A stretch of 64,000 bases of DNA, from IMG/VR virus record IMGVR_UViG_3300045988_182694, positions 5,939 to 69,938 of that record; one strand, written 5' to 3'. Made by a program: the position numbers and the translations under genes. Shown piece by piece: positions 5,440 to 47,331 of this stretch. This DNA comes from a virus. The notes beneath the pieces are model-generated. The model searched no databases and was not told the DNA's origin. It saw only the letters and a program-made list of their open reading frames with translations. Positions within the stretch are counted from its first letter, which is position 1, and every line of letters begins with the position of its first letter.

Positions 5440-6003
5440 TCAGACACGGTCGTGTACGCAATCACCATTCCCATCAATCACAGAATCGTGCTGGAGGAAG
5501 GTGTCGTGGTACAGTGCCTTGCCAAACGCCTTGCAGACGGGGCATTCCCAGCTCACCTCCGTACCATCGTTGTAGTCGATTTCACGGTCGCCCTGATATT
5601 CGACCTCGGCGCCACACACGGGGCAGACGTCCTCCTCGTCGCCGTTGGGGTGCAGGAACGGGATGCGCTTGCCCTGAGGGTCAGTGAAGGGGACGACTAT
5701 GCGCTGAATAACGGCCAACAGAACGTCGATGTCGGCGTTTGCCATCATCAGTGCGATACGTCCGACCTCCAGCTTGAAATCCTCGGAAAAGATGTTCCCT
5801 TGGATAGTCGCAGCGATAGCCGCAGGATGCGCCATGGCCGCGACGGTATCACGTCCCAGCGAAATGAGGGCGTTGAGTGCCATAATGAACACGGTATGAC
5901 CGGATTCGGTATAGGCCTTGTCAAGCTCCTCATAGGCGGTGGCATCGTGATTCTTTCGACGCTGTGCGTCTAAACGGGCAATTTCATTAGGATAGTCAGT
6001 CAT
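5440..6003 (-). CDS. Hypothetical protein with CxxC...CxxC motif (187 aa)
   Basis: First gene after module B with GGGAGAAAGGAGAAATTC RBS; CPVCG...CPVCK. Confidence 0.75.
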   Translation of the reverse strand: MTDYPNEIARLDAQRRKNHDATAYEELDKAYTESGHTVFIMALNALISLGRDTVAAMAHPAAIAATIQGNIFSEDFKLEVGRIALMMANADIDVLLAVIQRIVVPFTDPQGKRIPFLHPNGDEEDVCPVCGAEVEYQGDREIDYNDGTEVSWECPVCKAFGKALYHDTFLQHDSVIDGNGDCVHDRV

Positions 6004-21205: not shown

Positions 21206-22246
21206 TTAAGCTCCCTGCCCTCTGCGGTCGGCGATGATTCGCTCGATGACCTCCTTATACATGAACATAACCTTTTCACCGACAGCCTTTCCTTCTTCAA
21301 TATCCTCAATGCAAGTCGCAGTAAAGATGTAGAGGCTTTGTGCATTCGGCGTGATAGCAGTCAAGGCGTAGGTGCGTTTGCCGTATTGGAACATCTCACG
21401 ATACATGAGGTCCACACCATCACGAGCGAGGGCAGCTTTGATGCAGTCCTTGCCTTCGTAAAAATCAGCTTCCTCGTCCTTCGCAGCTTTCAGATTTCGT
21501 GCGGGGATATCGGCGTCATCATCCAAAAGAGGTCGCCGAAGATTTGCCAACGGAACCACGATGATACCTTCGTCTCCCGTACTTCCCGCAGGCTGCAGTC
21601 GCACGTCCAAATAACTGAACTCGTCCGCAAAGTCAACGATACGATACATGGCACCCTCATAGAGAAACTCACGCTCATAATCGGTTGCTTTTAACGGATA
21701 GAGAGGCATATGAGGAGGGCCGTTGGTGCGTCCTTTTTCATCCTCAATATCCTCTTGCAATCGCAGGCATCGGGCATCCCAGATGATTTTCGCATCAGTC
21801 ACGTTGGGGTTGTTGTGGTACGGCGTCCGGATGAACTCGATACCGAACACGGCAAACCGGAATCTCCGTCCAGCACTATTGCGCTTTGTCCCGAACGATG
21901 GCCTTTGTACGAAAATTCGCGCCTTATAAGTGTCCGCCACATACCACAAAGCCGCTTTAATATCATCGCGCATCTCACCAACGCATGACTCAACGTACTT
22001 GGGATTGTCTGCGTCTACGATAAGGTTGAGTGTGACTTCTGTGATATTAGCTTTTTCGTACGAAACCTTGCACGGACGGGGAAGGTCGGGGTCATTTCCG
22101 TAGCGTTCTTTTCCGAAGGGGTCTTTACAGCAATAGGCCTGTCCCTTCACATTGAACTCAACAACCTGCTTGATGAACTCACAGAGCCCATTCTTGTTGG
22201 TGATTGCTCCCGCACCAACGGTAGTATCGAGTGTGTGCAGGTTCAT
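21206..22246 (-). CDS. Paralog family member 3 (346 aa)
   Basis: Same family motifs. Its ATG overlaps the IscB stop (ATGA). Confidence 0.75.
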   Translation of the reverse strand: MNLHTLDTTVGAGAITNKNGLCEFIKQVVEFNVKGQAYCCKDPFGKERYGNDPDLPRPCKVSYEKANITEVTLNLIVDADNPKYVESCVGEMRDDIKAALWYVADTYKARIFVQRPSFGTKRNSAGRRFRFAVFGIEFIRTPYHNNPNVTDAKIIWDARCLRLQEDIEDEKGRTNGPPHMPLYPLKATDYEREFLYEGAMYRIVDFADEFSYLDVRLQPAGSTGDEGIIVVPLANLRRPLLDDDADIPARNLKAAKDEEADFYEGKDCIKAALARDGVDLMYREMFQYGKRTYALTAITPNAQSLYIFTATCIEDIEEGKAVGEKVMFMYKEVIERIIADRRGQGA

Positions 22247-23520
22247 GTTGTTTCTCCTCTCCTTTCAATTAAGTAACTTGTAGATGACTCAACAATCGTT
22301 AGTGCCGTGTAAGGAGCACCTGTATGAACTTTCTTACCATCGAAATTCTTCAATGCAAAATATCCTCTTACTCTTCTCCCTGTGATAAAGCACTCTTGTC
22401 CGTTGAACAGGACTTTATCCCAGAGCCGGAAACCAAACACCTCATAGGGAGCTTGATTCCGTTTACGGATACCACCCTTAATGGGATTGACCTTATGCAA
22501 CTGCCGGTTATGATGCCGAACGGCTCGGATACGATAGAGCGTATCGCTGGGCTGTGCGTCCGGCACACGAGCGATGCAACGGGCATCGTTCACATGGGAT
22601 TTCTGGATGGCGTGAGTCTCGCGCAACAGCTTTGTGATATAGCCGTAAGTCTCCTTCACAGGAATACTGAGCTCATTGCGAAGCCTCCGCATCAGAGTTT
22701 TACGCATGATACCCATGAATGCCGCATCGCGGAAACTCTTACCCCGTTTCCTCTTACCCTCCTCCAGAGTAACAACTCCTGCGTGTAAGAGCCTATGGCA
22801 CTTCTCACAGAGGGTGATAAGGTTATTGGGGGCATTGCCTCCGACATGGCGGCTTTCCTTGTGGTGGACTGCAAACTTCACTGGAGCCTTATCTGTGGAC
22901 TGGATTCCGCAGCACTGGCAGGTGTAGGTATCCCTCTTGAGAACGTACTGGCGAACGTTATATTCGTCGTACATCTCTCCGAGCTGATAATCCGTACCGA
23001 CCGGTAGGGGCTTACCCTCCAGCATAGCCTTGAGCCGCTGCACATCAAACTCCGCTGTCTCCACGATGACCACGGAGATAGGGAGGATGGCACACGTTCT
23101 CTTGATGGCTGTGATATGCTCTTGGATTTTTACCTCTACCGAAGGTGCCAGCCAACCCTTATGTTTACTGTGGACGCGGTTGTTAAACCGTACAGCACGG
23201 TAACGAGTCTTGCGGTTCCTCCGGCTGCGGCGCAGCTCCCGCCTCGTAGAGAGCAACTCAACCACATCGTTGCGAGGCTTTACCTCCGCAGCGAAGAGTT
23301 CCTTGCTCTCGGTACAAGCGGACAATCCGATGAACTTGCTTCCGGCATCTACGCCCAGCGTGATATCCTGTTTATATTCGCTGCTGCGGTGCAGCAGGCG
23401 AATGGTAAACGGGGTACGCCGGACCACTGTTGCCTTGTGGTCTCTCAACATGATGCGAGCCTTCCGTGGGGAGCACGGCATCAAAGGCTCGCCGTGCTGG
23501 TTGAGTACATACACATACAT
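22243..23520 (-). CDS. iscB: IscB RNA-guided nuclease (OMEGA family), 425 aa, catalytic motifs intact
   Basis: PLMP domain GEPLMPCSPRKARIMLR; RuvC-I LGVDAGSKFIG; Arg-rich bridge RRELRRSRRNRKTRYRAVRFNNR; RuvC-II VIVETAEFD; HNH CQCCG...HHKESRHVGGN...LCEKCHRLLH; RuvC-III KSHVNDARCIA. Start refined to ATG 23520 (AAAGGAGACGACATCA RBS). Confidence 0.85.
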   Translation of the reverse strand: MYVYVLNQHGEPLMPCSPRKARIMLRDHKATVVRRTPFTIRLLHRSSEYKQDITLGVDAGSKFIGLSACTESKELFAAEVKPRNDVVELLSTRRELRRSRRNRKTRYRAVRFNNRVHSKHKGWLAPSVEVKIQEHITAIKRTCAILPISVVIVETAEFDVQRLKAMLEGKPLPVGTDYQLGEMYDEYNVRQYVLKRDTYTCQCCGIQSTDKAPVKFAVHHKESRHVGGNAPNNLITLCEKCHRLLHAGVVTLEEGKRKRGKSFRDAAFMGIMRKTLMRRLRNELSIPVKETYGYITKLLRETHAIQKSHVNDARCIARVPDAQPSDTLYRIRAVRHHNRQLHKVNPIKGGIRKRNQAPYEVFGFRLWDKVLFNGQECFITGRRVRGYFALKNFDGKKVHTGAPYTALTIVESSTSYLIERRGETT

Positions 23521-23810
23521 TGATGTCGTCTCCTTTCTTGTCGTTGTGACAGTTAAACTTAGACAAAACTGTCCTCTCTGTAGAGAGTGAGAATCCTTCC
23601 CCAAGGTTTTTCCGAGGTTTCCATGTATGCAGCACTGTTCCTTACCCTCAGAACTGTTTAACCACATACCGCAGAGCGTGGGATTAGGATTTACGTCCCA
23701 CGGTGCCTATACATTCTCGGATAACGTAGTGCTCGAAGCACTTAGGGTAGTCAATCAGGGCTTGCAGCTATTCACCACAAGCCCGTGGTTTTAACCACGG
23801 GTTATTGACA
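23521..23810 (-). ncRNA. Candidate omega-RNA of IscB-1
   Basis: About 290 nt, ORF-free, hairpin-rich (for example ACCCGTGG-TTAAAA-CCACGGGC and GACAGTT...AACTGTC), directly upstream of iscB on the same strand. 5' boundary uncertain. Confidence 0.55.
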
Positions 23811-37266: not shown

Positions 37267-37344
37267 GATGGCGTAGCATAATGGTAATGCCGTGCCTCTC
37301 TCACAGACAACGTTATGCTGGTTCGACCCCAGCCGCCATTGCCA
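37267..37344 (+). tRNA. Non-canonical tRNA-like gene (best hand fold gives anticodon CUC, Glu?)
   Basis: Acceptor GATGGCG/CGCCATT, D-arm GCAT-AATGGTA-ATGC, T-arm GCTGG-TTCGACC-CCAGC, CCA encoded. The anticodon stem has a C.A mismatch and extra nucleotides. Confidence 0.35.
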
Positions 37345-37447
37345 ACCGGCGTTCCACCCACCCCGCCGGTATTCATCTCTCTTCGTTTCTCTTTCGAGAG
37401 AAGGCGGTGGCCTCCTGTACGGAGGCCGCCGCCAACTACCAAAACTT

Positions 37448-37523
37448 GCTGGTGTAGCTCAGTAGGCAGAGCGGCGCACTCGTAACGCGCAGGTCGTGGG
37501 TTCGACCCCCACCGTCAGCTCCA
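37448..37523 (+). tRNA. tRNA-Thr (anticodon CGU)
   Basis: 76-nt cloverleaf drawn by hand; anticodon loop CTCGTAA; T-loop TTCGACC; CCA encoded; A31.C39 mismatch. Confidence 0.8.
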
Positions 37524-37649
37524 ATCCACACTTTTTCTCTTTCTTTTCATTTTTATCCCCCCACTGTACGAAGCCCTCACAGACAACGCAGTTGAAAATT
37601 AAATTTCAGCCGCACCGCCTGTGGGGGCTTCACCCCATCTATCACCTAT

Positions 37650-37725
37650 GCTGCTGTAGCTCAGTAGGTAGAGCGGCGGATTTGTAACCCGCAGGTCGGG
37701 AGTTCGAGCCTCCCCAGCAGCTCCA
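37650..37725 (+). tRNA. tRNA-Thr (anticodon UGU)
   Basis: 76-nt cloverleaf; anticodon loop TTTGTAA; CCA encoded. Confidence 0.8.
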
Positions 37726-37764
37726 TTTTAATTCAACTCTACGGAGTCCAACTTCTTTACATAT

Positions 37765-37840
37765 GCGGATGTCGTCTAATTGGTGAGGCACCGGCCCTCC
37801 AAGCCGGTCATTGCGGGTTCGAGTCCCGTCATCCGCTCCA
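37765..37840 (+). tRNA. tRNA-Gly (anticodon UCC) with C at position 33
   Basis: Perfect acceptor GCGGATG/CATCCGC; all arms canonical; anticodon loop CCTCCAA (C32 C33 U34 C35 C36 A37 A38); CCA encoded. Confidence 0.7.
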
Positions 37841-37869: not shown

Positions 37870-38389
37870 ATACCTGCTCGCTGTCCGTCCATTGATTCGT
37901 TGCGGAAATCGGCGTCTCTTGGACACATTCTGTTCGCCGCAAGGCCTCGCTCTTTCGCTTGAGGCTACTGCGCCGAACCGCCTCGGACAGTATCGGCGAA
38001 ATGCGAAAGTCTCCTGAAGCGTGAGAAGCGAACCGCCTGCGCCTATATGTAGGCGGTGGCGTGATAAGGGAGATACTCCGTGTTGTTTCAGCCGCCGTGA
38101 GCGGGCATCAATGACCTGTGGGCACCTGCATTGCCCATGGGCACTGGGAAGCTGGGCAAATCTTAGGCACAGAAGCTCGTAGTCAAAGCCGACCCGCCGG
38201 ACGCGGTGCGTCAGCTTTCAAATTGGGCTTTGTGGGGTCCAGTGCTCTTGCGGTTGGGTTGCCGCAGGGCCGGCAAGAAATCATTATCAGATACGGCTTG
38301 GCGAGCCGGAATTTACGCCTGTGGAGACGAAATCCGTCGGTGAAACAGGAATTTTGGGGACACCAATACTTTGAAAGGACAAAAGACTT

Positions 38390-39442
38390 ATGGCGACGAC
38401 ATTCCAAGCGTTTAAGTATCGCATTTATCCTACGGATGAACAAATCGAGGTCATCGAACGCACCTTCAAGTGCTGCCGCTTCGTGTGGAATCACTTTTTG
38501 GAGCGTACCAGCAAAATCTACGACCGCCGGCAGGAAAGTATGTCAAAGTTCGACTGCATGAAGGTTCTGACCGAGATGCGTGAGCGCTGGCCGTGGCTGG
38601 AAGATTGCGGGTGTTCCGCAGAGCGATATGCTATCGTGAATCTGTTCGAGGCGCGTAAGGCCTTCTTCCGCCGTATAAAGGCAGGGGAGAAGCCCGGTTA
38701 TCCCAAGTTTAAGAGCGCCCGTTGTCCGTCTCAGAGCTTTACTACCGCCGGAACCATCTATGTGACGGACGAGTGCATCCAAATCCCTTTCGGCAGTCAG
38801 TATCAGAAAATCAATAAGGTCAAGCGCGGCAGTGGCCGCCCCGCTGTGGGTATCCCCCGTGAGGTTACGATATCCCGTTCCTCTACCGGTAAATACTGGG
38901 CATCCGTCTGTTGCATGGTGGAGCGCGAGGAACTGCCTGTCGCCGAGGGCGAAGTCGGTATCAGCCTCGGTCTGAAGGAGCTGGCTATCGACAGCAACGG
39001 CGTACACTATGAGAACCCGAAGCATCTGAGCAAGTCCGCAAAGCGTCTTGCTCGTGAGCAGCGTCGTCTGTCCCGCAAGCAGAAGGGTTCTGCCAACTAT
39101 GAGAAGAACCGTAAGCTGGTGGCTGAAATCCATGAGCATATTGCCAACCAGCGGCGTGACTATCGACATAAAATCAGCCGCGAACTCGTCAACAGCAACC
39201 AGCTCATCGCTGTTGAAAAGGTGGCTGTCAAGTCTCTGGTTGAGGGCAACGAGCAGGCCAAGAGCATCCTCGATGCCGGCTGGTCTGAGCTGACCAGCAT
39301 GATTAAGTATAAGGCTGAGTGGGCTGGACGCACTCTGGTGGACGTAGACACAGCCACCGTAGCGCCGGAAGCCAAGCATGACGAGGCGCTGGCACAGGTC
39401 GTGCTGTCCGAAGGTCAGCGCATGGCTTCCGAGGGCTATTGA
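38390..39442 (+). CDS. tnpB: TnpB-like protein, predicted nuclease-dead and C-terminally truncated (350 aa)
   Basis: Classic N-terminus FKYRIYPTDEQ. RuvC-I reads GISLGLKELA (Ser where Asp is expected); RuvC-II Glu retained (IAVEKVAVKSL). Homology ends after AGWSELTSMIKYKAEWAGRTLVDVD. No Zn-finger or RuvC-III. Confidence 0.8.
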   Translation: MATTFQAFKYRIYPTDEQIEVIERTFKCCRFVWNHFLERTSKIYDRRQESMSKFDCMKVLTEMRERWPWLEDCGCSAERYAIVNLFEARKAFFRRIKAGEKPGYPKFKSARCPSQSFTTAGTIYVTDECIQIPFGSQYQKINKVKRGSGRPAVGIPREVTISRSSTGKYWASVCCMVEREELPVAEGEVGISLGLKELAIDSNGVHYENPKHLSKSAKRLAREQRRLSRKQKGSANYEKNRKLVAEIHEHIANQRRDYRHKISRELVNSNQLIAVEKVAVKSLVEGNEQAKSILDAGWSELTSMIKYKAEWAGRTLVDVDTATVAPEAKHDEALAQVVLSEGQRMASEGY

Positions 39443-39648
39443 AGATTTGAAGTGGGAAACCCGCAAAAAGTCTAATAGCCACAGCCACAGCGACGTATGT
39501 AAGTTTTCTCTCAGGTAGAGGCGACGGATGCACCTGCGGGTTTTCCCAGCTCGCAGCAACTGCCAAGCATACGCCAAGGCAAGGGAAACACTACCACCCC
39601 ATTGGGGTGTGCCTTAACGGAAAAAACTATGAAAGGAGATAACGTTAT
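39443..39648 (+). ncRNA. Structured non-coding region: candidate omega-RNA of IscB-2 and/or guide-RNA scaffold of the TnpB-like gene
   Basis: ORF-free 206 nt. Long-range pairing GGGAAACCCGCA...TGCGGGTTTTCCC; hairpin CACCCC-ATT-GGGGTG. Position fits both families. Confidence 0.45.
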
Positions 39649-41133
39649 ATGGACATGGTATATGTGCTTAACAAAGATGGTAAGCCTTTGATGGCAACGA
39701 CTCGTGGTGGACGTGTGCGTTATCTTCTCAAGGAGAAGAAAGCACGAGTCGTAAGTTCTACCCCGTTTACCATCCAGTTGAACTATGATACCCCTGATGC
39801 TACCCAAGACTTGATTCTTGGCATCGACCCCGGCAGGACGAACATCGGCGTAGCTGTCGTCAAGGAGGACGGCTCCTGTGTGTTCTCCGCACATCTGGAG
39901 ACTCGCAACAAGGATGTACCCCTCCTGATGAAGAAGCGTGCTGCGTTTCGGAGAAACCATCGCACGTTGGACCGGCGCAGGAAGCGCCAGCGTCGTGCGA
40001 AGGCTGCGGGAACCACCATCGCCGAGGGTTCTGTCGAGAGATTGCTCCCCGGCTATGAGAAGCCCATTATGTGCCACCATATCCGCAATAAGGAGGCGCG
40101 GTTCAATAACCGCAGCCGCCCTGCGGGTTGGTTGACACCCACGGCGAACCATCTACTGCAGACCCACATCAACTTGATTGCGAAGGTTGCAAAGTTCCTG
40201 CCTATCACAAAAGTGGTGGTGGAACTGAACCGCTTCGCTTTCATGGCGATGGATAATCCCAATATCCGTCGGTGGGAATACCAGCAGGGTCCGTTGTGCG
40301 GACTGGGCTCCGTGGAGGATGCGGTGTACGCACAGCAGGACGGACATTGCCTGTTCTGCAAGAAGCCCATTGACCATTACCATCATGTTATCCCTCGCCA
40401 TAAAAGAGGGAGTGAGACGTTGGCAAATCGGTGTGGACTTTGTGCGAAGCACCATGACCTCGTCCATACGGACAAGGCGTGGGCGGATAAGCTGGTCACA
40501 CGGAAGGAAGGTATGAATAAAAAGTACCACGCCTTGAGTGTGCTGAACCAGATTATCCCGCACCTCATGGAGTACATCGGGAGCGAGACGCTCTACGATG
40601 CCTACGCCACGGATGGTCGCTCTACCAAGGGCTTCCGAATCGCCAAGAACGTGCCGAAGGAACATTACACGGATGCCTACTGTATCGCCTGTTCCATCTT
40701 GGACACCGATATTGAGGTCTCCGCTCCTGTCGAACCCTTTGAGATGAAGCAGTTCCGCCGGCACGACCGGCAGGCTTGTATCCGCCAAATGGTTGACCGG
40801 AAGTACATTCTGGACGGCAAGGTCGTTGCAACAAACCGGCATAAGACCATTGAGCAAAAGTCCGATAGTCTTGAGGAGTTCCGCGAGGCTCACGGCAATG
40901 CTGCGGTATCGCAGCTTACCGTGAAGCCCCACCATCCCCAATGCAAGGATATGGCTCGTATCATGCCGGGGGCGGTGATGGTTTTTGATGGGGCTGTTGG
41001 CGTCTTTCAGGGCTCATCAGGACGGAACAATGGTACACCGAACTATTACAATTCTACGAAAGGAGAAAGGTTTTTAACGAGGAGCTGTGTGCTTCTCGCG
41101 CAGAACGCAGGTATGGTTTTTATCCCCGCCTGA
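39649..41133 (+). CDS. iscB: IscB RNA-guided nuclease (494 aa), catalytic motifs intact
   Basis: PLMP-like [19 protein letters not shown]; Ruv[13 protein letters not shown]; Arg-rich [16 protein letters not shown]; Ruv[11 protein letters not shown]; [19 protein letters not shown]...[14 protein letters not shown]; Ruv[24 protein letters not shown]. Confidence 0.85.
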
Positions 41134-41270
41134 AAACTAAGTTTTGTGGAAAAAACACATCAAATCTTAAATGCCCGCCTCCGAGCAGAAGCCTGCCTAA
41201 AGCCCTATACCAAGTAAATAAAGTGTGCAATGATTGCACACATTGCCAAGGAAATAAAAACGAGTACGGA

Positions 41271-41394
41271 TGGTATAACCGGAATTTACGCCTGTGGAGA
41301 TGCATGGTCATCGTGGAAGCAGGAAGACTCTGTTTGCTGGATTTCACGTGAGAGGTGATGGCAGCACTTTAGGGAACTGAATATGCCTGTGTCG
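41271..41394 (+). ncRNA. Conserved structured leader L1 (extended -10 TGGTATAAC at 41271-41279) fused to array 1
   Basis: Near-identical to L2 and L3. Hairpin 41291-41323 and stem GCTGG.../...CAGC show compensatory or G.U changes between copies. Confidence 0.6.
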
Positions 41395-41815
41395 GGTGTA
41401 TAAAGCCCTGAAATAACAGGGTTGTATACCCTTCACCCCAAACACTGTCAAAGAGGCCATGGTGTATGATACCCTGAAACGACAGGGTTGTATACCATCT
41501 CCGTCAGCTTCTCGCAGCGGGCCTGCGGTGTATGATACCCTGAAACGACAGGGTTGTATACCCTATCTTAATATGAGGCGCAAAAGTGCCGTGGTGTATG
41601 ATACCCTGAAACGACAGGGTTGTATACCCCGGATGGGACGCGAGTAAGCCTCTATGTGGTGTATAAGGCCCTGAACTAACAGGGGTGTATACCAGAATAT
41701 CCCGTCCTCATCGACCGACACAAGGCGTATAAGACCCCGAAATAGCAGGGTTGTATACCAATGGCTCGTTCGGAATTTGGCATATACGGTTCTAAAATAA
41801 CGGGGGGTGTATACC
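41395..41815 (+). CRISPR. CRISPR-like array 1: 7 repeats (36 nt) and 6 spacers
   Basis: Repeat GGTGTATGATACCCTGAAACGACAGGGTTGTATACC. Repeat starts 41395, 41461, 41527, 41593, 41658, 41724 and ~41780. Spacers 30, 30, 30, 29, 30 and ~20 nt, all unique. Repeats degenerate towards the right. Confidence 0.8.
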
Positions 41816-41870
41816 GTTTGCAAATGAGTCTACATAACTATTGAAATCAAAAAGAAAGGAATATAAAAAC

Positions 41871-42449
41871 ATGGAACCTTCTATCAACCGAACCCTTACC
41901 GTCAGTGTCGTCAGCTATGGCGTCGTATCCGTCGTCAACGGAGTCATCAACGTTGACAATCAGGCTCCCATCGAGTTTCCCGCCGTGCTGGACGAGGCAT
42001 CCGCTGCCAAGCTGCTGAAGAGCAGATACGGCGGCAAGCTGTTCCCCGTGGATGCGAATATCGTCGTGTCTTCCATCCGGCACGAGAAGTGGAAGTTCTC
42101 TATGGACCTGAGCCAGTTCGTCGCTACCGCTGCCCGCAGCCGCGTGGACGGCACCGCATCCGAGGCCGACGATGCCCCCGCAGAGGACATCCCCGCCACC
42201 GAGCCTGCTGCTCCTGCGCCTGAGACGGCACCCGCTGCTTCTCCTGCTATCCCCATGCCTTTGGTCTCTGAACCTGAGGAGGATTTTGCGCCTGTAGCTC
42301 CCGAAGCGCCTGCTCCCGCCGGTGGTTTCGCTCCTGAGACCCCCGTTTCTGCGCCCGCTGCTCCCGCAAAGGAAGTCCCCTATGGCGGCAACTTCGATTT
42401 TCCCTCTGGCTTCGGTGGCGACTTCGGTTCCGGCTTCTTCGGCGGTTAA
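41871..42449 (+). CDS. Hypothetical protein with P/A-rich and FG-rich C-terminal tail (192 aa)
   Basis: ATG 41871 behind an AAAGGAA RBS. Confidence 0.65.
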   Translation: MEPSINRTLTVSVVSYGVVSVVNGVINVDNQAPIEFPAVLDEASAAKLLKSRYGGKLFPVDANIVVSSIRHEKWKFSMDLSQFVATAARSRVDGTASEADDAPAEDIPATEPAAPAPETAPAASPAIPMPLVSEPEEDFAPVAPEAPAPAGGFAPETPVSAPAAPAKEVPYGGNFDFPSGFGGDFGSGFFGG

Positions 42450-42455
42450 TAACCG

Positions 42456-42623
42456 ATGGATGTCGTGAACGTTGGACGTGGATGTCTTGATTGCATCAAT
42501 AAGGAAACTCCGACGAATAAAGAACCCTGTAAGAGCTGTTCCCGCTGGAATAGGTGGGAACCTGACGAAAAGTGTAAGGAAAAGATGGCGGTCAAAGCCG
42601 CCCGTGAAAGGACAAAGAAATGA
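42456..42623 (+). CDS. Possible small CxxC protein (55 aa)
   Basis: Not in the ORF track. CLDC...CKSC. Its stop overlaps the next ATG (ATGA); weak RBS. Confidence 0.4.
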   Translation: MDVVNVGRGCLDCINKETPTNKEPCKSCSRWNRWEPDEKCKEKMAVKAARERTKK

Positions 42624-42937
42624 GTAATACCAAGGCATCTGAAAAGCCCGTCGTCGTATTCATCAGTAATGACAACGATACCGTCATTGGTGTGATGGTC
42701 ATTAAGAACGACGATGAAAACCTGCAGAACAATCTCGAAATCATTGAGAAAAACTGGGTTGCTGCTCGTAACGAGTTGCTCCAGCGGGCTCGTGAGGACG
42801 ATAGCATTGAAGCAGACGAGGACGAGCTTCACATCGCATTCATCGCACACGAGTTGGAGATGTTCGACGAGCCCTATGAGACTATCGACATCTCCGGCGT
42901 TTACTCCGTCTCCAATGGGAATGTGGACCGCATCTAA
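42620..42937 (+). CDS. Hypothetical acidic protein (105 aa)
   Basis: ORF, translationally coupled. Confidence 0.6.
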   Translation: MSNTKASEKPVVVFISNDNDTVIGVMVIKNDDENLQNNLEIIEKNWVAARNELLQRAREDDSIEADEDELHIAFIAHELEMFDEPYETIDISGVYSVSNGNVDRI

Positions 42938-42960
42938 GTTGGTCTTGGAGACACCCACAC

Positions 42961-42999
42961 AGCGGCGCAGGCCCTACTCCGGCGCCTGCGCCGCTTTCC
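42961..42999 (+). terminator. GC-rich hairpin after CDS 42620-42937 (weak T-tract)
   Basis: AGCGGCGCAGGC...GCCTGCGCCGCT followed by TTCC. Confidence 0.4.
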
Positions 43000-43027
43000 A
43001 CTAAAAATCTTAAAAGTTAGGTACGGA

Positions 43028-43152
43028 CGGTATAACCGGAATTAACGCCTGTGGAGATGCTTGGTCGTCGTGGAAGCAGGAAGACTCTGTTGGCTGGTAA
43101 TTACGTGAGAGGTGATACCAGCACCTTTAGGGAACTGAATATGCCTGTGTTG
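43028..43152 (+). ncRNA. Conserved structured leader L2
   Basis: Aligns with L1 and L3 over its whole length; stem GCTGGTA/TACCAGC. Confidence 0.55.
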
Positions 43153-43255
43153 GGTGTATGGGGCCCTGAAATAACAGGGTTGTGTACCCGCACTTACCGT
43201 GATATCGAGCATTGTTTTAGGTGTATGGGGCCCTGAAATAACAGGGTTGTGTACC
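43153..43255 (+). CRISPR. CRISPR-like mini-array 2: 2 repeats, 1 spacer (31 nt)
   Basis: Repeat variant GGTGTATGGGGCCCTGAAATAACAGGGTTGTGTACC at 43153 and 43220. Confidence 0.5.
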
Positions 43256-43321
43256 AGATTATATATGATATGTGTGTAGGTATTCGTTTAGGACAACTTG
43301 AAGTTGAAAGGAGGTCTCTGG

Positions 43322-43843
43322 ATGGCCTCAAAAAAAATATATAGTTCCCCTGAACTCTATGAGGACAAGTTGGTGCGCGTAATGGCGCGGCTTGGTATCG
43401 AAGAAGGCGACTACAACTACGACTGGAGTCGTCAGGAGTGTTGGGTTGAGTTCAGGTACAAGGGTGAGCTTTACCGCTTCTCCCATAGCGTGAAGAACGC
43501 CCAAGAGCACGGCATCTCCCTGCAGTACGGCTCCGATGCCTTCGCACAGGTCGTGCTCTCCTTGGAAGACCTCGCCCGTATGGTCGAACGTGGTATCTAC
43601 GACCTGTCCACATGGGTGGCCGGCATGAAAGCCCTGCCGGAGCGCTCCAAGCCTTTAGATGCCTGCTTTATTGCTCTCGGTTTCGTAGAGCCTCCCACAT
43701 CCAAGGAAGAAATCACACTCCACTACCGCCGGTTGGCGAAGGTGTATCACCCTGATGCCGGCGGCGATAGCTCCTCATTTGATGCGCTGTCTAACAACTA
43801 TGCGAAATGTATGAAGATTTTCGAGGAGGTTGCCGACAAATAA
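43322..43843 (+). CDS. J-domain (DnaJ-like) protein (173 aa)
   Basis: C-terminal ...ITLHYRRLAKVYHPDAGGD... with the HPD motif. GAAAGGAGG RBS. Confidence 0.65.
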   Translation: MASKKIYSSPELYEDKLVRVMARLGIEEGDYNYDWSRQECWVEFRYKGELYRFSHSVKNAQEHGISLQYGSDAFAQVVLSLEDLARMVERGIYDLSTWVAGMKALPERSKPLDACFIALGFVEPPTSKEEITLHYRRLAKVYHPDAGGDSSSFDALSNNYAKCMKIFEEVADK

Positions 43844-44352
43844 TGTATATGTCTCAGAAAGAGTTCAACGCTATGATGAAGAAAAATCCCCGCCTCCGTG
43901 TTCACGGTGCAAACAATAACACCCGCGAGCATCGCTCTAAGGCAAATAAGGCGGCAAAATATAGAAATGTAAAGGTATACGAGTATGCCGACGGTCTGGC
44001 CTTTTTCGGTAAGCCCCGCAATAACGGTGAAATCCCTACCGCTGTCTATGACAGCAAGAAGGAATATCACCGCTGGAAAGAGCTTCAGATTTTGGAGCGT
44101 GGCGGCCACATTCACGACCTCCGCCGGCAGGTTCCTTTGACAATCATTACCGAGTTCGAGTATCGTGGTCAGAAGGTCTCCGGCATTACCTACAAGGCCG
44201 ATGCGGTCTATGTGCGTGATGGAAAGCGTGTGGTGGAGGACGTAAAGCCCTTCGATACCACAACGCAGAAGTATCGGACCACAAAGGATTTCAACCTCAA
44301 GTGGAAGCTGCTGAAAGCTGAATATCCTACTTGGTCTTTTGAAATCTATTAA
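43843..44352 (+). CDS. DUF1064-family protein (169 aa)
   Basis: KYRNVKV...DSKKEYHRWKELQILERGGHIHDLRRQ...ITYKADAVY...VVEDVKP...FNLKWKLLKAEYP matches the remembered DUF1064 pattern. Confidence 0.7.
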   Translation: MYMSQKEFNAMMKKNPRLRVHGANNNTREHRSKANKAAKYRNVKVYEYADGLAFFGKPRNNGEIPTAVYDSKKEYHRWKELQILERGGHIHDLRRQVPLTIITEFEYRGQKVSGITYKADAVYVRDGKRVVEDVKPFDTTTQKYRTTKDFNLKWKLLKAEYPTWSFEIY

Positions 44353-44365
44353 AAACGAGTACGGA

Positions 44366-44490
44366 TGGTATAACCGGAATTAACGCCTGTGGAGATGCAT
44401 GGTCGTCGTGGAAGCAGGAATACTCTGTTGGCTGGTAATCATGTGAGAGATGATACTGGCACCTTTGGGGAACTGAATATGCCTGTGTCG
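44366..44490 (+). ncRNA. Conserved structured leader L3 (TGGTATAAC at 44366-44374)
   Basis: Aligns with L1 and L2; stem GCTGGTA/TACTGGC keeps pairing through two G.U pairs in plus sense. Confidence 0.55.
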
Positions 44491-44633
44491 GGTATATAGA
44501 ACCCTGAAACGACAGGGTTGTGTATCACAGAATAACTGCGGCAGCGGCATATATGGCTCTGAAACAACAGGGTTGTATACCGCATAAAAAAGGCTATGGT
44601 GTGTAATACCCTGAAATAACAAGGTTGTGTACC
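44491..44633 (+). CRISPR. CRISPR-like array 3: 3 diverged repeats with short spacers (19 and 16 nt)
   Basis: Repeats at 44491, 44546 and 44598 share CCCTGAAA(C/T)(G/A)ACA(G/A)GGTTGT(A/G)TA(C/T)C. Confidence 0.4.
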
Positions 44634-44817
44634 CCATAACATATTGTTTCTGAAAGGGGTGGACGGCAAGTGGAAAATCTGAGCAACATCCGGTGGCGAG
44701 TTCATCTGTACCCCTGCTACGGTGGAGGGGATGGTATTTTCCTCGCTTACTTCGGCCTCGTGCAGTGAGTGATTGCAGGGCTTTCGACGGTTCCGCAAAT
44801 TTGTTCGTTCCAAGAAC

Positions 44818-44896
44818 TTGACAAAATATCGAAATATAGTAGTATAGAATTATAAGGAAGGACAGTCTAACACAGACTGTCCTTCCGCTTTTTTAT
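44818..44896 (+). promoter_or_regulatory. Plus-strand variant of the promoter-hairpin module (copy I)
   Basis: TTGACA (44818-44823), 17 nt, AGTATAGAATTATAA, then a 13-bp hairpin GGAAGGACAGTCT-AACAC-AGACTGTCCTTCC and T6. Confidence 0.6.
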
Positions 44897-44919
44897 GCTC
44901 TGAAAGGGGATGACAATTT

Positions 44920-45717
44920 TTGGAAAGCACAAGCAAAAAACAAGTAAAATGGGGGGTTTTCAAAATTGCACTCTTTACGTTCCTGTTCGCCGCAGTATCC
45001 GTTTTCTACTTTCTCTCCGCCAACATGACACTCGCACAGGCCGAAGAGCGCTCAAACCACGAAGCGCCTCCTGCTGGAGCAGCGGTTGCCACCCAGATGG
45101 ACGGCACCAAGCTGTCGGAAAAAGCGCAGCAAGATGTTCTGGAACTGAAGGAAGGAGTTCTCGACCCTCTTTCCGACATCACAGAAGTAGAGAACTCTGA
45201 AGATGACCCCGACGCCGTGGAGGAAGTACAGGAAGTCGTTCCGACAGTCTGTTCCTACTGCGGCTCTGAGAACCATAGTTCCTCAATCTGTGCAAAGAGG
45301 TCTATCGCCAATGGTGCCTATGGGCGCTGGGTGATTCCGTCTGTTGGCTGTAATGTAGCGGCCTACTCGTGTAACTGGGATGCAGACCAATCCTATGTTC
45401 AGGAAATTACTGACCGTTCCGACAGTGCAGCTTTCTTGACCTGCGGCGGCGTTGGCGTTCTTGCGGACCACAATAACCAAGGTTTTTGGGGACTTTCCAA
45501 TGTTTCTGTTGGCACGAAAGCCTACATGGATTTTGGTGATGGCGCGACTTACTACGAGTGCTATCAGGTTGAATATGGACACAATACCGGCGAAAAGATG
45601 CTCGATGGAAACGGAAACATAATGAGCTACAGCAACTATTCTTCCGGCACTGTGATTTGTTACACCTGCCTTGACCACTGGACAAACATTTACGTCACTT
45701 ACTGGACTCCGTCGTAA
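44920..45717 (+). CDS. Secreted or membrane-anchored protein 1 with CCHC zinc knuckle and His/Cys (sortase-like layout) domain
   Basis: N-terminal hydrophobic anchor, acidic linker, CSYCGSENHSSSIC, ...LADHNNQGF...ICYTC.... Probable TTG start. Confidence 0.6.
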   Translation: MESTSKKQVKWGVFKIALFTFLFAAVSVFYFLSANMTLAQAEERSNHEAPPAGAAVATQMDGTKLSEKAQQDVLELKEGVLDPLSDITEVENSEDDPDAVEEVQEVVPTVCSYCGSENHSSSICAKRSIANGAYGRWVIPSVGCNVAAYSCNWDADQSYVQEITDRSDSAAFLTCGGVGVLADHNNQGFWGLSNVSVGTKAYMDFGDGATYYECYQVEYGHNTGEKMLDGNGNIMSYSNYSSGTVICYTCLDHWTNIYVTYWTPS

Positions 45718-45740
45718 TCGAAAAGAAAGGACAAAAGAAC

Positions 45741-46541
45741 ATGAAAACGAAATTCAAAATTCCTCGGTGGGCTCTCTTCACCGTTATCATTCTGGCCTTC
45801 ATTGGCGGTCTTTTCGCAATCTCTACGCTGCCCGTCTTTGCAGCCCGCGAAAGCTCTCCGCCTTTGGCAGTAGCAGAAGCCGCGCAGAACGAGGAAAAGG
45901 ACGCAAATTCTGATGCTCAGACTCCCGAAGCAGACAAGACGACCGATGAACAGGGAAGTGCTGAAGCCCCCGTAGAGGCCGAGTCTCAGGCAGACGACGC
46001 CGACGTTGTCGAAGAGACTCCCGCCGAAGAGCCTGTTCAGGAAACCCCGACTACCTGTTCCTACTGCGGCAGTGCAGAACACACCAGAGACTACTGCGCC
46101 GTTCGTGCCGTTGACAATGGTGCCGTTGGCCGGCTCCGGATTCCCTCTGTCGGTGTTGACGTGGCTGTCTACGACGTTACTTGGTACTCTCTGCAGCATA
46201 CCACCGAGAGTGACAACTACACGCAGGCCGTTACAGATGCATGGGACAGCGCAGCACAAATCGTCTATCTCGGCCAGACCGTTATTGGCGACCATAATAA
46301 TCAGGGCTTCTCCGCCATCAACAACTGCTCCGAAGGCACCTACGCTTACATCGACATGGGCGACTCTGTCCTGACCTATGTTTGCACCGGCATCCAGCAT
46401 GGTCGTAACCCCGGTGGCTATCTCACCGGGGCCGATGGCGATAGCATCTATACCTCTTACTTCAATCCCAACGGTCTGACGCTGTATACCTGTCTCGACC
46501 ACAACTTCAATGTTGCCCTCGTGACATTCCAGCTTGCATAA
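45741..46541 (+). CDS. Secreted or membrane-anchored zinc-knuckle protein 2 (paralog)
   Basis: Signal/TM segment, acidic linker, CSYCGSAEHTRDYC, ...IGDHNNQGF...LTLYTC.... Confidence 0.7.
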   Translation: MKTKFKIPRWALFTVIILAFIGGLFAISTLPVFAARESSPPLAVAEAAQNEEKDANSDAQTPEADKTTDEQGSAEAPVEAESQADDADVVEETPAEEPVQETPTTCSYCGSAEHTRDYCAVRAVDNGAVGRLRIPSVGVDVAVYDVTWYSLQHTTESDNYTQAVTDAWDSAAQIVYLGQTVIGDHNNQGFSAINNCSEGTYAYIDMGDSVLTYVCTGIQHGRNPGGYLTGADGDSIYTSYFNPNGLTLYTCLDHNFNVALVTFQLA

Positions 46542-46557
46542 AGGGGGTGCAGCTTTA

Positions 46558-47331
46558 ATGAAAACAAAGAAGATTTCCCGCCGCGCTGTTACGCTGGCTG
46601 CCTTTTTGCTGGTAAGTGCAACATCTTTACATATGGCCTGTGCAGAGGCTTCGGTGCCGTTCGATTACTTTACTGATGACCTCTCTGTGTCCGCTGCCGC
46701 CGTTGTGGAGGAAGATAAATACCTGCCTCCTGAGTGGTTCACAAAAGAAAATGCTGTAAGTGAAGTGGACTCAGACACGCCTCCGGTGGAGACTCCTACC
46801 CCTGCGGGCGAATTCTCTGTAGCGACCCCCGTGTCTGAGCCCGCACTGGAAACCGCAGCAGCCTGCAGCTATTGCGGCAGCGCAGGGCACTCGCAGAATA
46901 GGTGTGCCGTTTACGCTGTCGAACAGCGAGGTGCCGTTGGGCGTTGGTCTGTCCCTTCTATTGGAATAGATGTCGCTTGCTTCACCTATGTGCTTGGAAG
47001 CGATTCTTTCGAGTACGGACAGGCAATTTGTGACGCTGCCGATAGTGCCGGCTACAGTGCGTATGGGAGCCAGTATCTCATTGCAGACCACAACTATCAG
47101 GGCTTTTCTGCCATAGCCAACTGCGCGGTTGGTGCGGTGGGATATATGGATTACGGAAACAGTCGAACAGAATATGTTTGTACTGGGGTGGAGTATGGGC
47201 ACAATGAAGGCACGGAACTGACTGATAATGACGGAAACGATGTTGCGTACAACAACAGTGGAGGAATTACCCTTTACACCTGTTACAACGGTTGGCAAAA
47301 CGTCGTTATCGTTTACTTTACTCCGACTTAA
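46558..47331 (+). CDS. Secreted or membrane-anchored zinc-knuckle protein 3 (paralog)
   Basis: ATG 46558 behind a GGGGG RBS; CSYCGSAGHSQNRC; ...IADHNYQGF...ITLYTC.... Confidence 0.7.
   Translation: MKTKKISRRAVTLAAFLLVSATSLHMACAEASVPFDYFTDDLSVSAAAVVEEDKYLPPEWFTKENAVSEVDSDTPPVETPTPAGEFSVATPVSEPALETAAACSYCGSAGHSQNRCAVYAVEQRGAVGRWSVPSIGIDVACFTYVLGSDSFEYGQAICDAADSAGYSAYGSQYLIADHNYQGFSAIANCAVGAVGYMDYGNSRTEYVCTGVEYGHNEGTELTDNDGNDVAYNNSGGITLYTCYNGWQNVVIVYFTPT

Follow-up and report, generated by a model that had tools for sequence, protein, structure and literature searches.

The closest described relatives of the locus reported here are the TldR repressors, the TranC nucleases, the dCas12f proteins and the TnpB of ISDra2. 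The locus lies in a 64,000-nucleotide (nt) stretch of virus DNA, positions 5,939 to 69,938 of the IMG/VR record IMGVR_UViG_3300045988_182694. This whole stretch is called the window, and coordinates refer to it unless a related locus is named. The locus comprises a gene for a 350-amino-acid (aa) TnpB-like protein, predicted to be nuclease-dead, and three CRISPR-like arrays, each preceded by a conserved leader. L-numbers denote related loci obtained from sequence searches and are not positions of the window.

The TldR repressors are dead TnpB proteins whose single guides are encoded next to them, and some TldR are phage-borne and aimed at the host fliC (bioRxiv 10.1101/2023.11.30.569447, Wiegand et al.). 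The TranC (Jin et al. 2025, Cell 188:6283, as cited in PMC13565253 and PMC13639567) are nucleases resembling TnpB; they have short arrays and lack adaptation genes, and their right-end element RNA (reRNA) is split into a tracrRNA (trans-activating CRISPR RNA) and a crRNA (CRISPR RNA). TranC clade 3 is ISDra2-like and comes from Oscillospiraceae, and one TranC (CauTranC9) resides on a phage (bioRxiv 10.64898/2026.03.27.714800). Some dCas12f proteins are found beside CRISPR arrays and control transcription by binding DNA under RNA guidance; one Sphingobacterium dCas12f locus contains full-length guide RNAs together with discontinuous arrays whose repeats resemble the scaffold (PMC13472631). The omega-RNA of ISDra2 is composed of stem 1, stem 2 enclosing stem 3, and stem 4, and the loop of stem 1 forms a pseudoknot with the 3-5 nt just before the guide (PMC10097598).

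In its predicted action the locus of the window resembles a TldR, and in its construction a TranC. It is best explained, with a probability of about 0.6, as a phage-borne system of TldR/TranC type, based on a domesticated ISDra2-type TnpB, that binds DNA under RNA guidance and does not cut it. This corresponds to a multi-guide system for a TnpB-derived DNA binder, the favoured one among the three readings offered by a preliminary description of the sequence. The same description stated that it knew of no described system with this exact layout, which overstates the novelty, as TldR, TranC and dCas12f loci were described in 2024-2026; the exact combination of a dead TnpB with scaffold-headed arrays was not found in the literature searched.

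With the TldR the locus shares a domesticated TnpB homologue (Pfam matches, E 1e-50 against ISDra2 TnpB, template modelling (TM) score 0.82) with an inactivated RuvC site and a lost zinc-finger region (D191 to Ser, a 28-aa deletion, the Glu retained). An omega-RNA-type guide, scaffold first and 3' guide after it, is encoded beside the gene in both, leader 1 following the stop codon by 75-80 bp in relatives, and some TldR are likewise carried by temperate phages and target a host gene. On the other hand, the TldR have single fixed promoter guides, whereas three scaffold copies with repeat-spacer arrays and spacer turnover are present here. Moreover, the only target found lies inside an open reading frame (ORF), and both the TnpB lineage and the hosts (phages of gut Oscillospiraceae) are different.

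With the TranC the locus shares a TnpB-sized protein beside short CRISPR arrays (repeats of 32-38 bp), a guide RNA derived from the transposon right-end RNA and a lack of nearby adaptation genes. For the window, the latter was assessed by a PADLOC scan of the 149 ORFs of at least 100 aa, and no Cas1, Cas2 or Cas4 is among the matches listed, of which the weakest has an E of 2e-11. The Cas1/Cas2 pair of a type V locus, with or without Cas4, is thus missing from these matches, in agreement with the preliminary description. However, the TranC are active nucleases and the 350-aa protein is predicted from its sequence to be dead, with the RuvC-I Asp lost and the zinc ribbon deleted. The full scaffold is here still fused to the first repeat and is triplicated; this unit is not split into tracrRNA and crRNA, the downstream repeats would have to work in trans or on their own, and complementarity that could act in trans is present. 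The match to LaTranC, the only TranC with a solved structure (E 1.8e-13 over 86 aa, TM 0.69/0.57) is also weaker than that to ISDra2 TnpB. The locus departs from the TranC in its predicted loss of nuclease activity and from the TldR picture of single guides at promoters.

The dCas12f and the naturally DNase-free Cas12c and Cas12m proteins are alike in being nuclease-deficient members of the TnpB/Cas12 family that control transcription by RNA-guided DNA binding, but belong to other, larger and chromosomal lineages. The dCas12f recruits a sigma-E factor, whereas no sigma factor gene was seen here, and its structural match reaches only a TM of 0.59. ISDra2 TnpB has the same fold, the same scaffold layout (stem 1, stems 2/3, stem 4, pseudoknot, 3' guide) and homologous motifs (PMC10097598, PMC8612924). 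In contrast to it, the present locus has no adjacent TnpA and no identified transposon ends, its nuclease is predicted to be inactivated, its stem-4 region is about 50 nt longer and its 3' module is multiplied into arrays.

Structure and homology of the leaders

The leaders and the structural elements of the first of them are the following.

41264-41394 (+): leader 1, omega-RNA-like scaffold (covariance model R1, 195.9 bits)
41267-41281 (+): stem 1 of leader 1, with the loop GGTATA at 41272-41277
41291-41323 (+): hairpin A (stems 2/3) of leader 1
41336-41365 (+): hairpin B of leader 1
from 41378 (+): 5' strand of hairpin C of leader 1
43021-43152 (+): leader 2, scaffold copy (R1, 197.8 bits)
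44359-44490 (+): leader 3, scaffold copy (R1, 196.2 bits)
38291-38394 (+): mini-scaffold, a compact fourth copy of 104 nt without hairpins B and C (R1, 42.2 bits, E 1e-11)

The leader is a structured RNA of the plus strand, as the preliminary description had proposed. Each leader is continuous with a diverged first repeat (rep0), and in the 33 distinct leader-plus-rep0 sequences used for covariation the structure is composed of four local hairpins and a long-range helix. In plus sense 97.0% of the alignment cells pair, against 32-50% in slid controls. When the same helices are read on the minus strand the value drops to 82.9%, because 180 cells are G.U. The compensatory and G.U changes on which the strand had originally been assigned are real in these 33 copies. 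At two pairs of hairpin B, A-U is replaced by G-C five times and U-A by C-G four times, and one-sided changes often yield G.U (U.G versus U-A at columns 38/47, U-A to U.G at columns 76/103). The folding energy is -49.7 kcal/mol for the plus strand and -33 for the minus strand. The conservation of the structure through changes that preserve G.U pairs points to an RNA and not to a DNA signal. An alternative helix from RNAalifold, between CUCUGUU of the leader and AACAGGG of the repeat, is compatible with the data, but its invariant columns give no discrimination.

The order of scaffold, hairpin and guide is that of a TnpB reRNA or a type V guide and not that of IscB, as previously stated. Sequence comparison further indicates homology of the leader and rep0 with the omega-RNAs that accompany active TnpB relatives. 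Trained exclusively on leaders, model R1 finds every leader copy at 185-203 bits and also matches the stretch directly after the stop codon of an active TnpB paralogue (3574-3750 of L006, likewise in L029 and L014; 27.6 bits, E 5e-7). By eye, ACGCCTGTGGAG, GAAGCAGGAAT and the scaffold end GT(A/G)TAC(C) recur downstream of the active TnpBs in L032, L035 and the L006 paralogue. The leader also follows the ISDra2 layout, with stem 1 (CGG...CCG), stems 2/3 in hairpin A (CCUGU...GCAGG enclosing GAUG/CAUC), an expanded stem-4 region formed by hairpins B and C and the repeat hairpin, and the scaffold 3' end UAUACC in rep0.

The stem-1 loop complements the final 4-6 nt that precede the guide in seven homologous scaffolds, given here as loop / 3' end:

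leader: GGUAUA / UAUACC
L035: GGUAU / AUACC
mini-scaffold: UUGG / CCAA
L006 paralogue: CAGG / CCUG
L032: GGGUA / UACCC
L036: GACAC / GUGUC
L037: GGGU / ACCC

The stem-1 loop is probably a pseudoknot strand, which this complementarity supports moderately. The same loop accounts for the string TGGTATAAC, which had been taken for an extended -10 element. The string exists but forms the stem-1 loop, and the active TnpB element L035 has GGTATAGCC at this place within its omega-RNA. No -35 box accompanies TGGTATAAC, and a promoter scan revealed nothing upstream of any leader, so the promoter reading was abandoned. A scan for terminators found none on the plus strand between 38390 and 44855. With neither a leader promoter nor such a terminator, a long read-through transcript is the simplest assumption.

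The mini-scaffold runs up to the start codon of the gene for the dead TnpB, and its guide would be that gene's ribosome-binding site with the first codons. L003 and L022 have this copy too, and L006-type phages lack it. It could be a relic of the transposon right end or an autoregulatory guide.

About 25 related phage contigs of IMG/VR carry the module. A 21-mer that is invariant in the leader is found at 26 IMG/VR loci, and the repeat core at more. By tblastn, the TnpB-like gene is followed in relatives by leader 1 and array 1, three small ORFs, and leader 2 and array 2; then come the J-domain-like and DUF1064 ORFs, leader 3 and array 3, three sortase-like paralogues and a serine recombinase. 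On a single 113-kb contig the loci L022 and L010 lie apart from each other and together comprise five or more leader-arrays, so the array RNAs are not always beside the protein gene. Among INPHARED phages no DNA similar to 38000-45000 of the window was found, and Rfam has no family for the leaders (gathering thresholds over the whole window, E up to 10 on 38000-45200).

The TnpB-like protein and the IscB elements

The protein genes in question and the RNA of the second IscB are listed below.

38390-39442 (+): TnpB-like gene, predicted nuclease-dead, 350 aa as it stands; native coding sequence to about 39433
41177-41200 (+): displaced original 3' end of this ORF (...cctccgagcagaagcctgcctaa), matching the ...ASEQKPA* end in L031 and others
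39433-41172 (+): IscB insertion element of 1.74 kb, with the IscB ORF at 39649-41133 and a conserved 216-nt 5' region (Pfam RRXRR)
22243-23809 (-): second IscB, 474 aa, with RRXRR and HNH domains
23587-23809 (-): HEARO omega-RNA of the second IscB (Rfam, 138 bits)

The 350-aa protein matches the Pfam domains OrfB_IS605 and HTH_OrfB_IS605, and its TNB zinc-ribbon domain is reduced to a stub. Against ISDra2 TnpB it aligns over residues 6-322 with 5-324 (phmmer, E about 1e-50). Its AlphaFold model (predicted local distance difference test score 80, predicted TM score 0.66) fits ISDra2 TnpB (8exa) best among the solved relatives, with a TM of 0.82/0.84. The RuvC-I aspartate D191, within GVDVG in ISDra2 TnpB, is replaced by Ser (GISLG), whereas the RuvC-II Glu (E278) is retained. 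Compared with active relatives of 41-54% identity, the dead clade lacks 28 residues that cover both CxxC pairs of the zinc ribbon and has KHDEALA in place of DRDENAA. Among 4,464 homologues the dead state is confined to three clusters, P0001-P0003 (74-100% identity), all of which lack PF07282, the TNB zinc-ribbon domain. All three acidic residues of RuvC are required for nuclease activity. Consequently, loss of this activity is predicted, and the earlier assignment of the protein as nuclease-dead is borne out at this level.

Between phage clades the ratio of nonsynonymous to synonymous divergence (dN/dS) of the protein is 0.04-0.14, at a dS of about 1.1. The gene is therefore not a pseudogene; the 350-aa protein is under purifying selection and still functional. 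It is very probable that the dead TnpB is the partner of the arrays, that the leader is an omega-RNA homologue and that the protein, as predicted, is unable to cut DNA.

Sister phages (L006 2451-3750, L029 7642-8941, L014 and L010) contain an intact full-length TnpB paralogue upstream of the transfer RNA (tRNA) cluster. It is 53% identical to the dead protein, has the zinc ribbon and the DRD motif, and is followed by its own omega-RNA of roughly 107 nt. The window does not carry this paralogue.

In the window the first IscB stands directly upstream of leader 1, and on the minus strand the arrays and leaders would read as guide, repeat and scaffold, the order of guide and scaffold known from IscB and Cas9. 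A CRISPR-associated IscB that uses them in this manner has nevertheless an extremely small probability. About 20 relatives have the stop codon of the dead tnpB 75-80 bp upstream of leader 1 and lack an intervening IscB (these include L003, L006, L007, L017, L019, L022, L024-L026 and L029-L031). The window flanks of the element rejoin, with a 9-nt overlap, to this uninterrupted junction, so that in this phage only has the element been inserted in the last codons of the dead tnpB, which are now supplied by the element itself, and separates the gene from leader 1. Copies 83-86% identical are found at other sites in L010, L012 and L014, in the latter two between cassette genes. The IscB is thus a bystander, functionally unlinked to the arrays, a mobile interloper. 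Its 216-nt 5' region, conserved across the copies and unrecognised by the Rfam HEARO model, is probably a variant omega-RNA of its own. HEARO matches the other IscB of the window and not the leaders, even at E up to 10; the phage thus has two different IscB elements, the second with a canonical HEARO RNA. Neither the linkage nor the 5'-guide scaffold of an IscB/HEARO system is found at the arrays, and the pairing statistics favour the plus strand. The proposal of IscB as array partner was consequently dropped.

Near-identical stretches of 9-10 nt flank the IscB element, GGCTTCCGAG on the left (about 39424-39433) and GCCTCCGAG on the right (41173-41182). At 41223-41241 (+), past the dead tnpB ORF and ahead of leader 1, lies a perfect palindrome, GTGTGCAATGATTGCACAC, conserved in L031, which could be a protein-binding site or an RNA hairpin.

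Arrays, spacer turnover and targets

The arrays and the gene cassettes between them are arranged as follows.

41395-41815 (+): array 1, 7 repeats and 6 spacers; rep0 fused to the leader, last repeat decayed
41395, 41461, 41527, 41593, 41658, 41724 and 41779 (+): repeat starts of array 1 (Hamming scan with the consensus GGTGTATGATACCCTGAAACGACAGGGTTGTATACC)
41871-42937 (+): cassette 1, with three small ORFs, separating array 1 from leader 2
43153-43255 (+): array 2, 2 repeats (43153, 43220) and a single 31-nt spacer
43322-44352 (+): cassette 2, J-domain-like and DUF1064 proteins, conserved between array 2 and leader 3
44491-44633 (+): array 3, 3 repeats (44491, 44546, 44598) and spacers of 19 and 16 nt

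A re-reading of 40900-44900 and a repeat finder agree with the preliminary description on three leaders and three arrays of 7, 2 and 3 repeats. The leaders, each roughly 130 nt, were rightly called near-identical (mean column identity 88% in the alignment), but were made to start too late, as the conserved block begins with GTACGG 7 nt further upstream. That each ends in a degenerate first repeat is also correct, rep0 having 5-6 mismatches against the 36-nt consensus. In array 1 the repeats 1-6 have 5, 0, 0, 0, 7 and 7 mismatches and the final one, of 37 nt, is badly decayed. The six spacers of this array stand, with lengths of 30, 30, 30, 29, 30 and 19 nt by the Hamming scan, so the earlier figure of about 30 nt fails for the sixth. 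The synteny of cassette 1 is kept across relatives (tblastn), and its ORFs gave no informative Pfam match.

The 36-nt repeat reads as the 3'-terminal, crRNA-like part of the scaffold. A comparison of 55 distinct repeats shows hardly any variation in the 3' 14 nt (CAGGGTTGTATACC) and in CCCnGAAA, and a variable 5' third. Hairpin C is formed by the 5' arm of rep0 with the leader's 3' end, and its two arms co-vary by leader type (AUAUGCC/GGUGUAU versus AUA--CC/GGUAUAC). Since rep0 pairs in this way, a downstream repeat could pair with the leader in trans. As an alternative, GGUGUA may pair with UAUACC inside the repeat.

In gaining and losing spacers the arrays resemble those of CRISPR. In the ordered arrays of relatives the spacers near the leader measure 29-32 nt and are each unique, whereas those at the far end are shared and lie between decayed repeats. 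The spacers of array 1, leader end first, show this succession:

window: CTTCACC / ATCTCCG / CTATCTT / CCGGATG / AGAATAT / AATGGCT
L022: CAAATCG / TGTGGGG / CCGGATG / AGAATAT / AATGGCT
L009: CCGGATG / AGAATAT / AATGGCT
L008 and L003: AATGGCT

The spacer of array 2 also occurs in L009 and L022 with one mismatch, and array 3 has fixed spacers, the 19-nt one common to 15 related loci and the 16-nt one to 10. Copies of rep0 make up the leader-proximal repeats of L006-type arrays, and the older repeats are of another type, as expected if the first repeat were duplicated at each insertion. A spacer CTTCGTCAATGA[T/G]GGCATTTCCACAGGCGT is found in L018 (393-422), L021 (118-147) and L030 (array 1); its 3' 16 nt are the reverse complement of the leader sequence ACGCCTGTGGAGATGC, with one mismatch.

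The geometry of 36-nt repeats and 30-nt spacers, together with gain at the leader end, is typical of Cas1-Cas2, and phage-borne arrays without cas genes are known. The arrays might then be orphans that use an effector and adaptation machinery of the host, the leader being a CRISPR leader only and the dead TnpB incidental; the absence of adaptation genes from the PADLOC matches listed for the window agrees with this. Such an origin is improbable, as a search of 185,579 species genomes for the repeat core gave two isolated matches, of which the one inspected (L033) is not an array. Furthermore, the leader is homologous to TnpB omega-RNA scaffolds and stands directly 3' of the dead tnpB, and its G.U-preserving changes indicate an RNA rather than a DNA signal.

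In the PADLOC scan the Cas12f and Cas12u models match one window ORF. The Csx1 model also matches one ORF (E 2.9e-28, 'found elsewhere'), which is not among the ten large unknown ORFs inspected; further ORFs match RecD-like models.

For the one spacer that was compared with metagenome DNA, a match to a gene of the likely host was identified. Spacer 2 of array 1 (41497-41526) matches 37 human-gut metagenome contigs of up to 229 kb, none of which is an array, and all 37 matches lie inside a single gene, gltX of gut Oscillospiraceae, which encodes glutamate-tRNA ligase. The identity is 30/30 in three contigs (L054, L057 and L062) and 28-29/30 elsewhere. The HIGH and KMSKS motifs and Pfam PF00749/PF19269 matches of the gene gave its assignment; one cluster bears the name of an Oscillospiraceae metagenome-assembled genome. 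The spacer is antisense to the gltX mRNA. The 5' flank of the protospacer is ...CGGGG, once ...CCGGG, and the protospacer-adjacent motif of OsTranC3 (TTC/TTTN) is not adjacent to it. A partial match of the L022 spacer TGTGGGGCC... near gltX was rejected, its identity of 20/30 being that of chance.

The 34 long spacers gave no match in INPHARED, and all spacers compared with the window and all phage loci returned array copies and chance seeds only. Six spacers searched as 22-mers in IMG/VR gave arrays only or nothing, with no viral protospacers.

Just upstream of the module, at 37267-37840 (+), lies a tRNA cluster (Glu-CTC, Thr-CGT, Thr-TGT and Gly-TCC). The phage thereby supplies a tRNA-Glu while one of its guides matches the glutamyl-tRNA synthetase gene of the host, which may be a coincidence.

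The uniform spacers and the gltX match also bear on the view of the module as a decaying or selfish remnant, with repeats that are duplicated IS605 right-end hairpins without guide function and spacers that are junk picked up by recombination. The equality of the repeat with the 3' end of the transposon right-end RNA, the decayed repeats and truncated spacers of several arrays, and the lack of an identified target for most spacers would all fit. Nonetheless, such a remnant is hardly probable given the strong purifying selection on the protein, leaders that remain 84-90% identical at a synonymous divergence of about 1.1, the uniform spacer length of 29-32 nt and the 30/30 match to a host gene.

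RNA-based anti-CRISPRs built of repeat mimics are known, and the dead TnpB and the array RNAs could likewise be an anti-defence decoy that mimics a TranC or type V system of the host and soaks up guides or effector. Active ISDra2-like TranC of clade 3, with repeats of 32 or 36 bp, are known from the family to which the hosts belong, gut Oscillospiraceae (bioRxiv 10.64898/2026.03.27.714800). This explanation is quite improbable as well: no host arrays with this repeat were found in the 185,579 species genomes, the similarity to LaTranC is weak, and a decoy needs neither a turnover of unique 30-nt spacers nor an exact match to a host gene.

Proposed mechanism, role and neighbouring elements

For the RNA-guided, DNA-binding system based on the dead TnpB, the following mechanism can be proposed. 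The module would be read as a long plus-strand transcript, in which the unit of leader, rep0 and spacer 1 would act as a natural single-guide RNA and the sequence after each repeat would be a guide. The downstream repeat-spacer units may either use the leader in trans, in the manner of a tracrRNA, or rely on a hairpin within each repeat. The trans route would involve pairing of the loop GGUAUA in stem 1 with UAUACC at the end of the repeat, and of the leader's 3' end with the repeat's 5' arm. The complex would then bind matching DNA beside a short 5' motif and block transcription or other processes without cutting; the gltX guide could thereby form a roadblock to transcription. As the effector is predicted to be nuclease-dead, targeting of an essential gene of the host may be tolerable.

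Several observations weigh against this reading. The scaffold of L032 is below the threshold of R1, and the pseudoknot complements of the homologues without arrays were picked by eye, their 3' ends not being independently bounded. The intra-repeat pairs 3/34 and 15/24 are not maintained across the repeats. Because the Glu and one Asp-like position of RuvC are kept, a residual nuclease activity is conceivable. The candidate target-adjacent motif (...CGGGG) represents a single site, because only one protospacer family is available, and the gltX site lies inside the ORF, unlike the promoter sites of the described TldR. Finally, the uniform spacers of ~30 nt imply a ruler-type integrase, and none is among the PADLOC matches listed for the window.

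As to the biological role, repression of host genes is put forward tentatively, at somewhat less than even odds. The match of a guide to an essential host gene and an effector predicted to be unable to cut point to programmable interference with host genes by the phage rather than to defence. A bolder and unlikely version is an adaptive natural CRISPR interference (CRISPRi), in which the arrays that program the dead TnpB go on acquiring 30-nt spacers out of the host's chromosomal DNA, gltX being an example, and so hold down host genes while the phage infects or persists as a lysogen. If this were true, spacers would be added without a dedicated Cas1-Cas2 in the element, and the locus would be a living snapshot of an unsplit transposon guide RNA sprouting a CRISPR array.

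The locus joins the discoveries of TldR and TranC in one natural setting. It keeps an intermediate state, with the scaffold fused to the first repeat and active paralogues with homologous omega-RNAs in sister phages, through which the transition from a transposon guide RNA to a CRISPR array can be tested directly. The gain of uniform 30-nt spacers without Cas1-Cas2 nearby sharpens the question of acquisition, a gap likewise reported for TranC systems. In addition, a multi-guide DNA binder of 350 aa is an attractive compact CRISPRi scaffold.

Two other groups of features adjoin or surround the module.

44920-47331 (+): three tandem paralogues of 265-266 aa, mutually 35-45% identical
around 85, 6160, 11317, 19992, 25449, 28838, 31910, 55775 and 63945 (plus-strand coordinates; -): copies of a module of about 165 nt
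44818-44895 (+): promoter-only copy of the 165-nt module

The paralogues have hydrophobic N-terminal segments and a weak Sortase match, and stand downstream of array 3 in all relatives. The module of about 165 nt is repeated nine times on the minus strand of the window. Each of these modules contains a sigma-70-like promoter (TTGACA...TATAGAATTATAA), a conserved leader of ~100 nt with a hairpin (GGAGATTATCTCC) and a strong intrinsic terminator. They look like promoter-proximal terminator cassettes of antitermination-controlled operons or like a multicopy small RNA.

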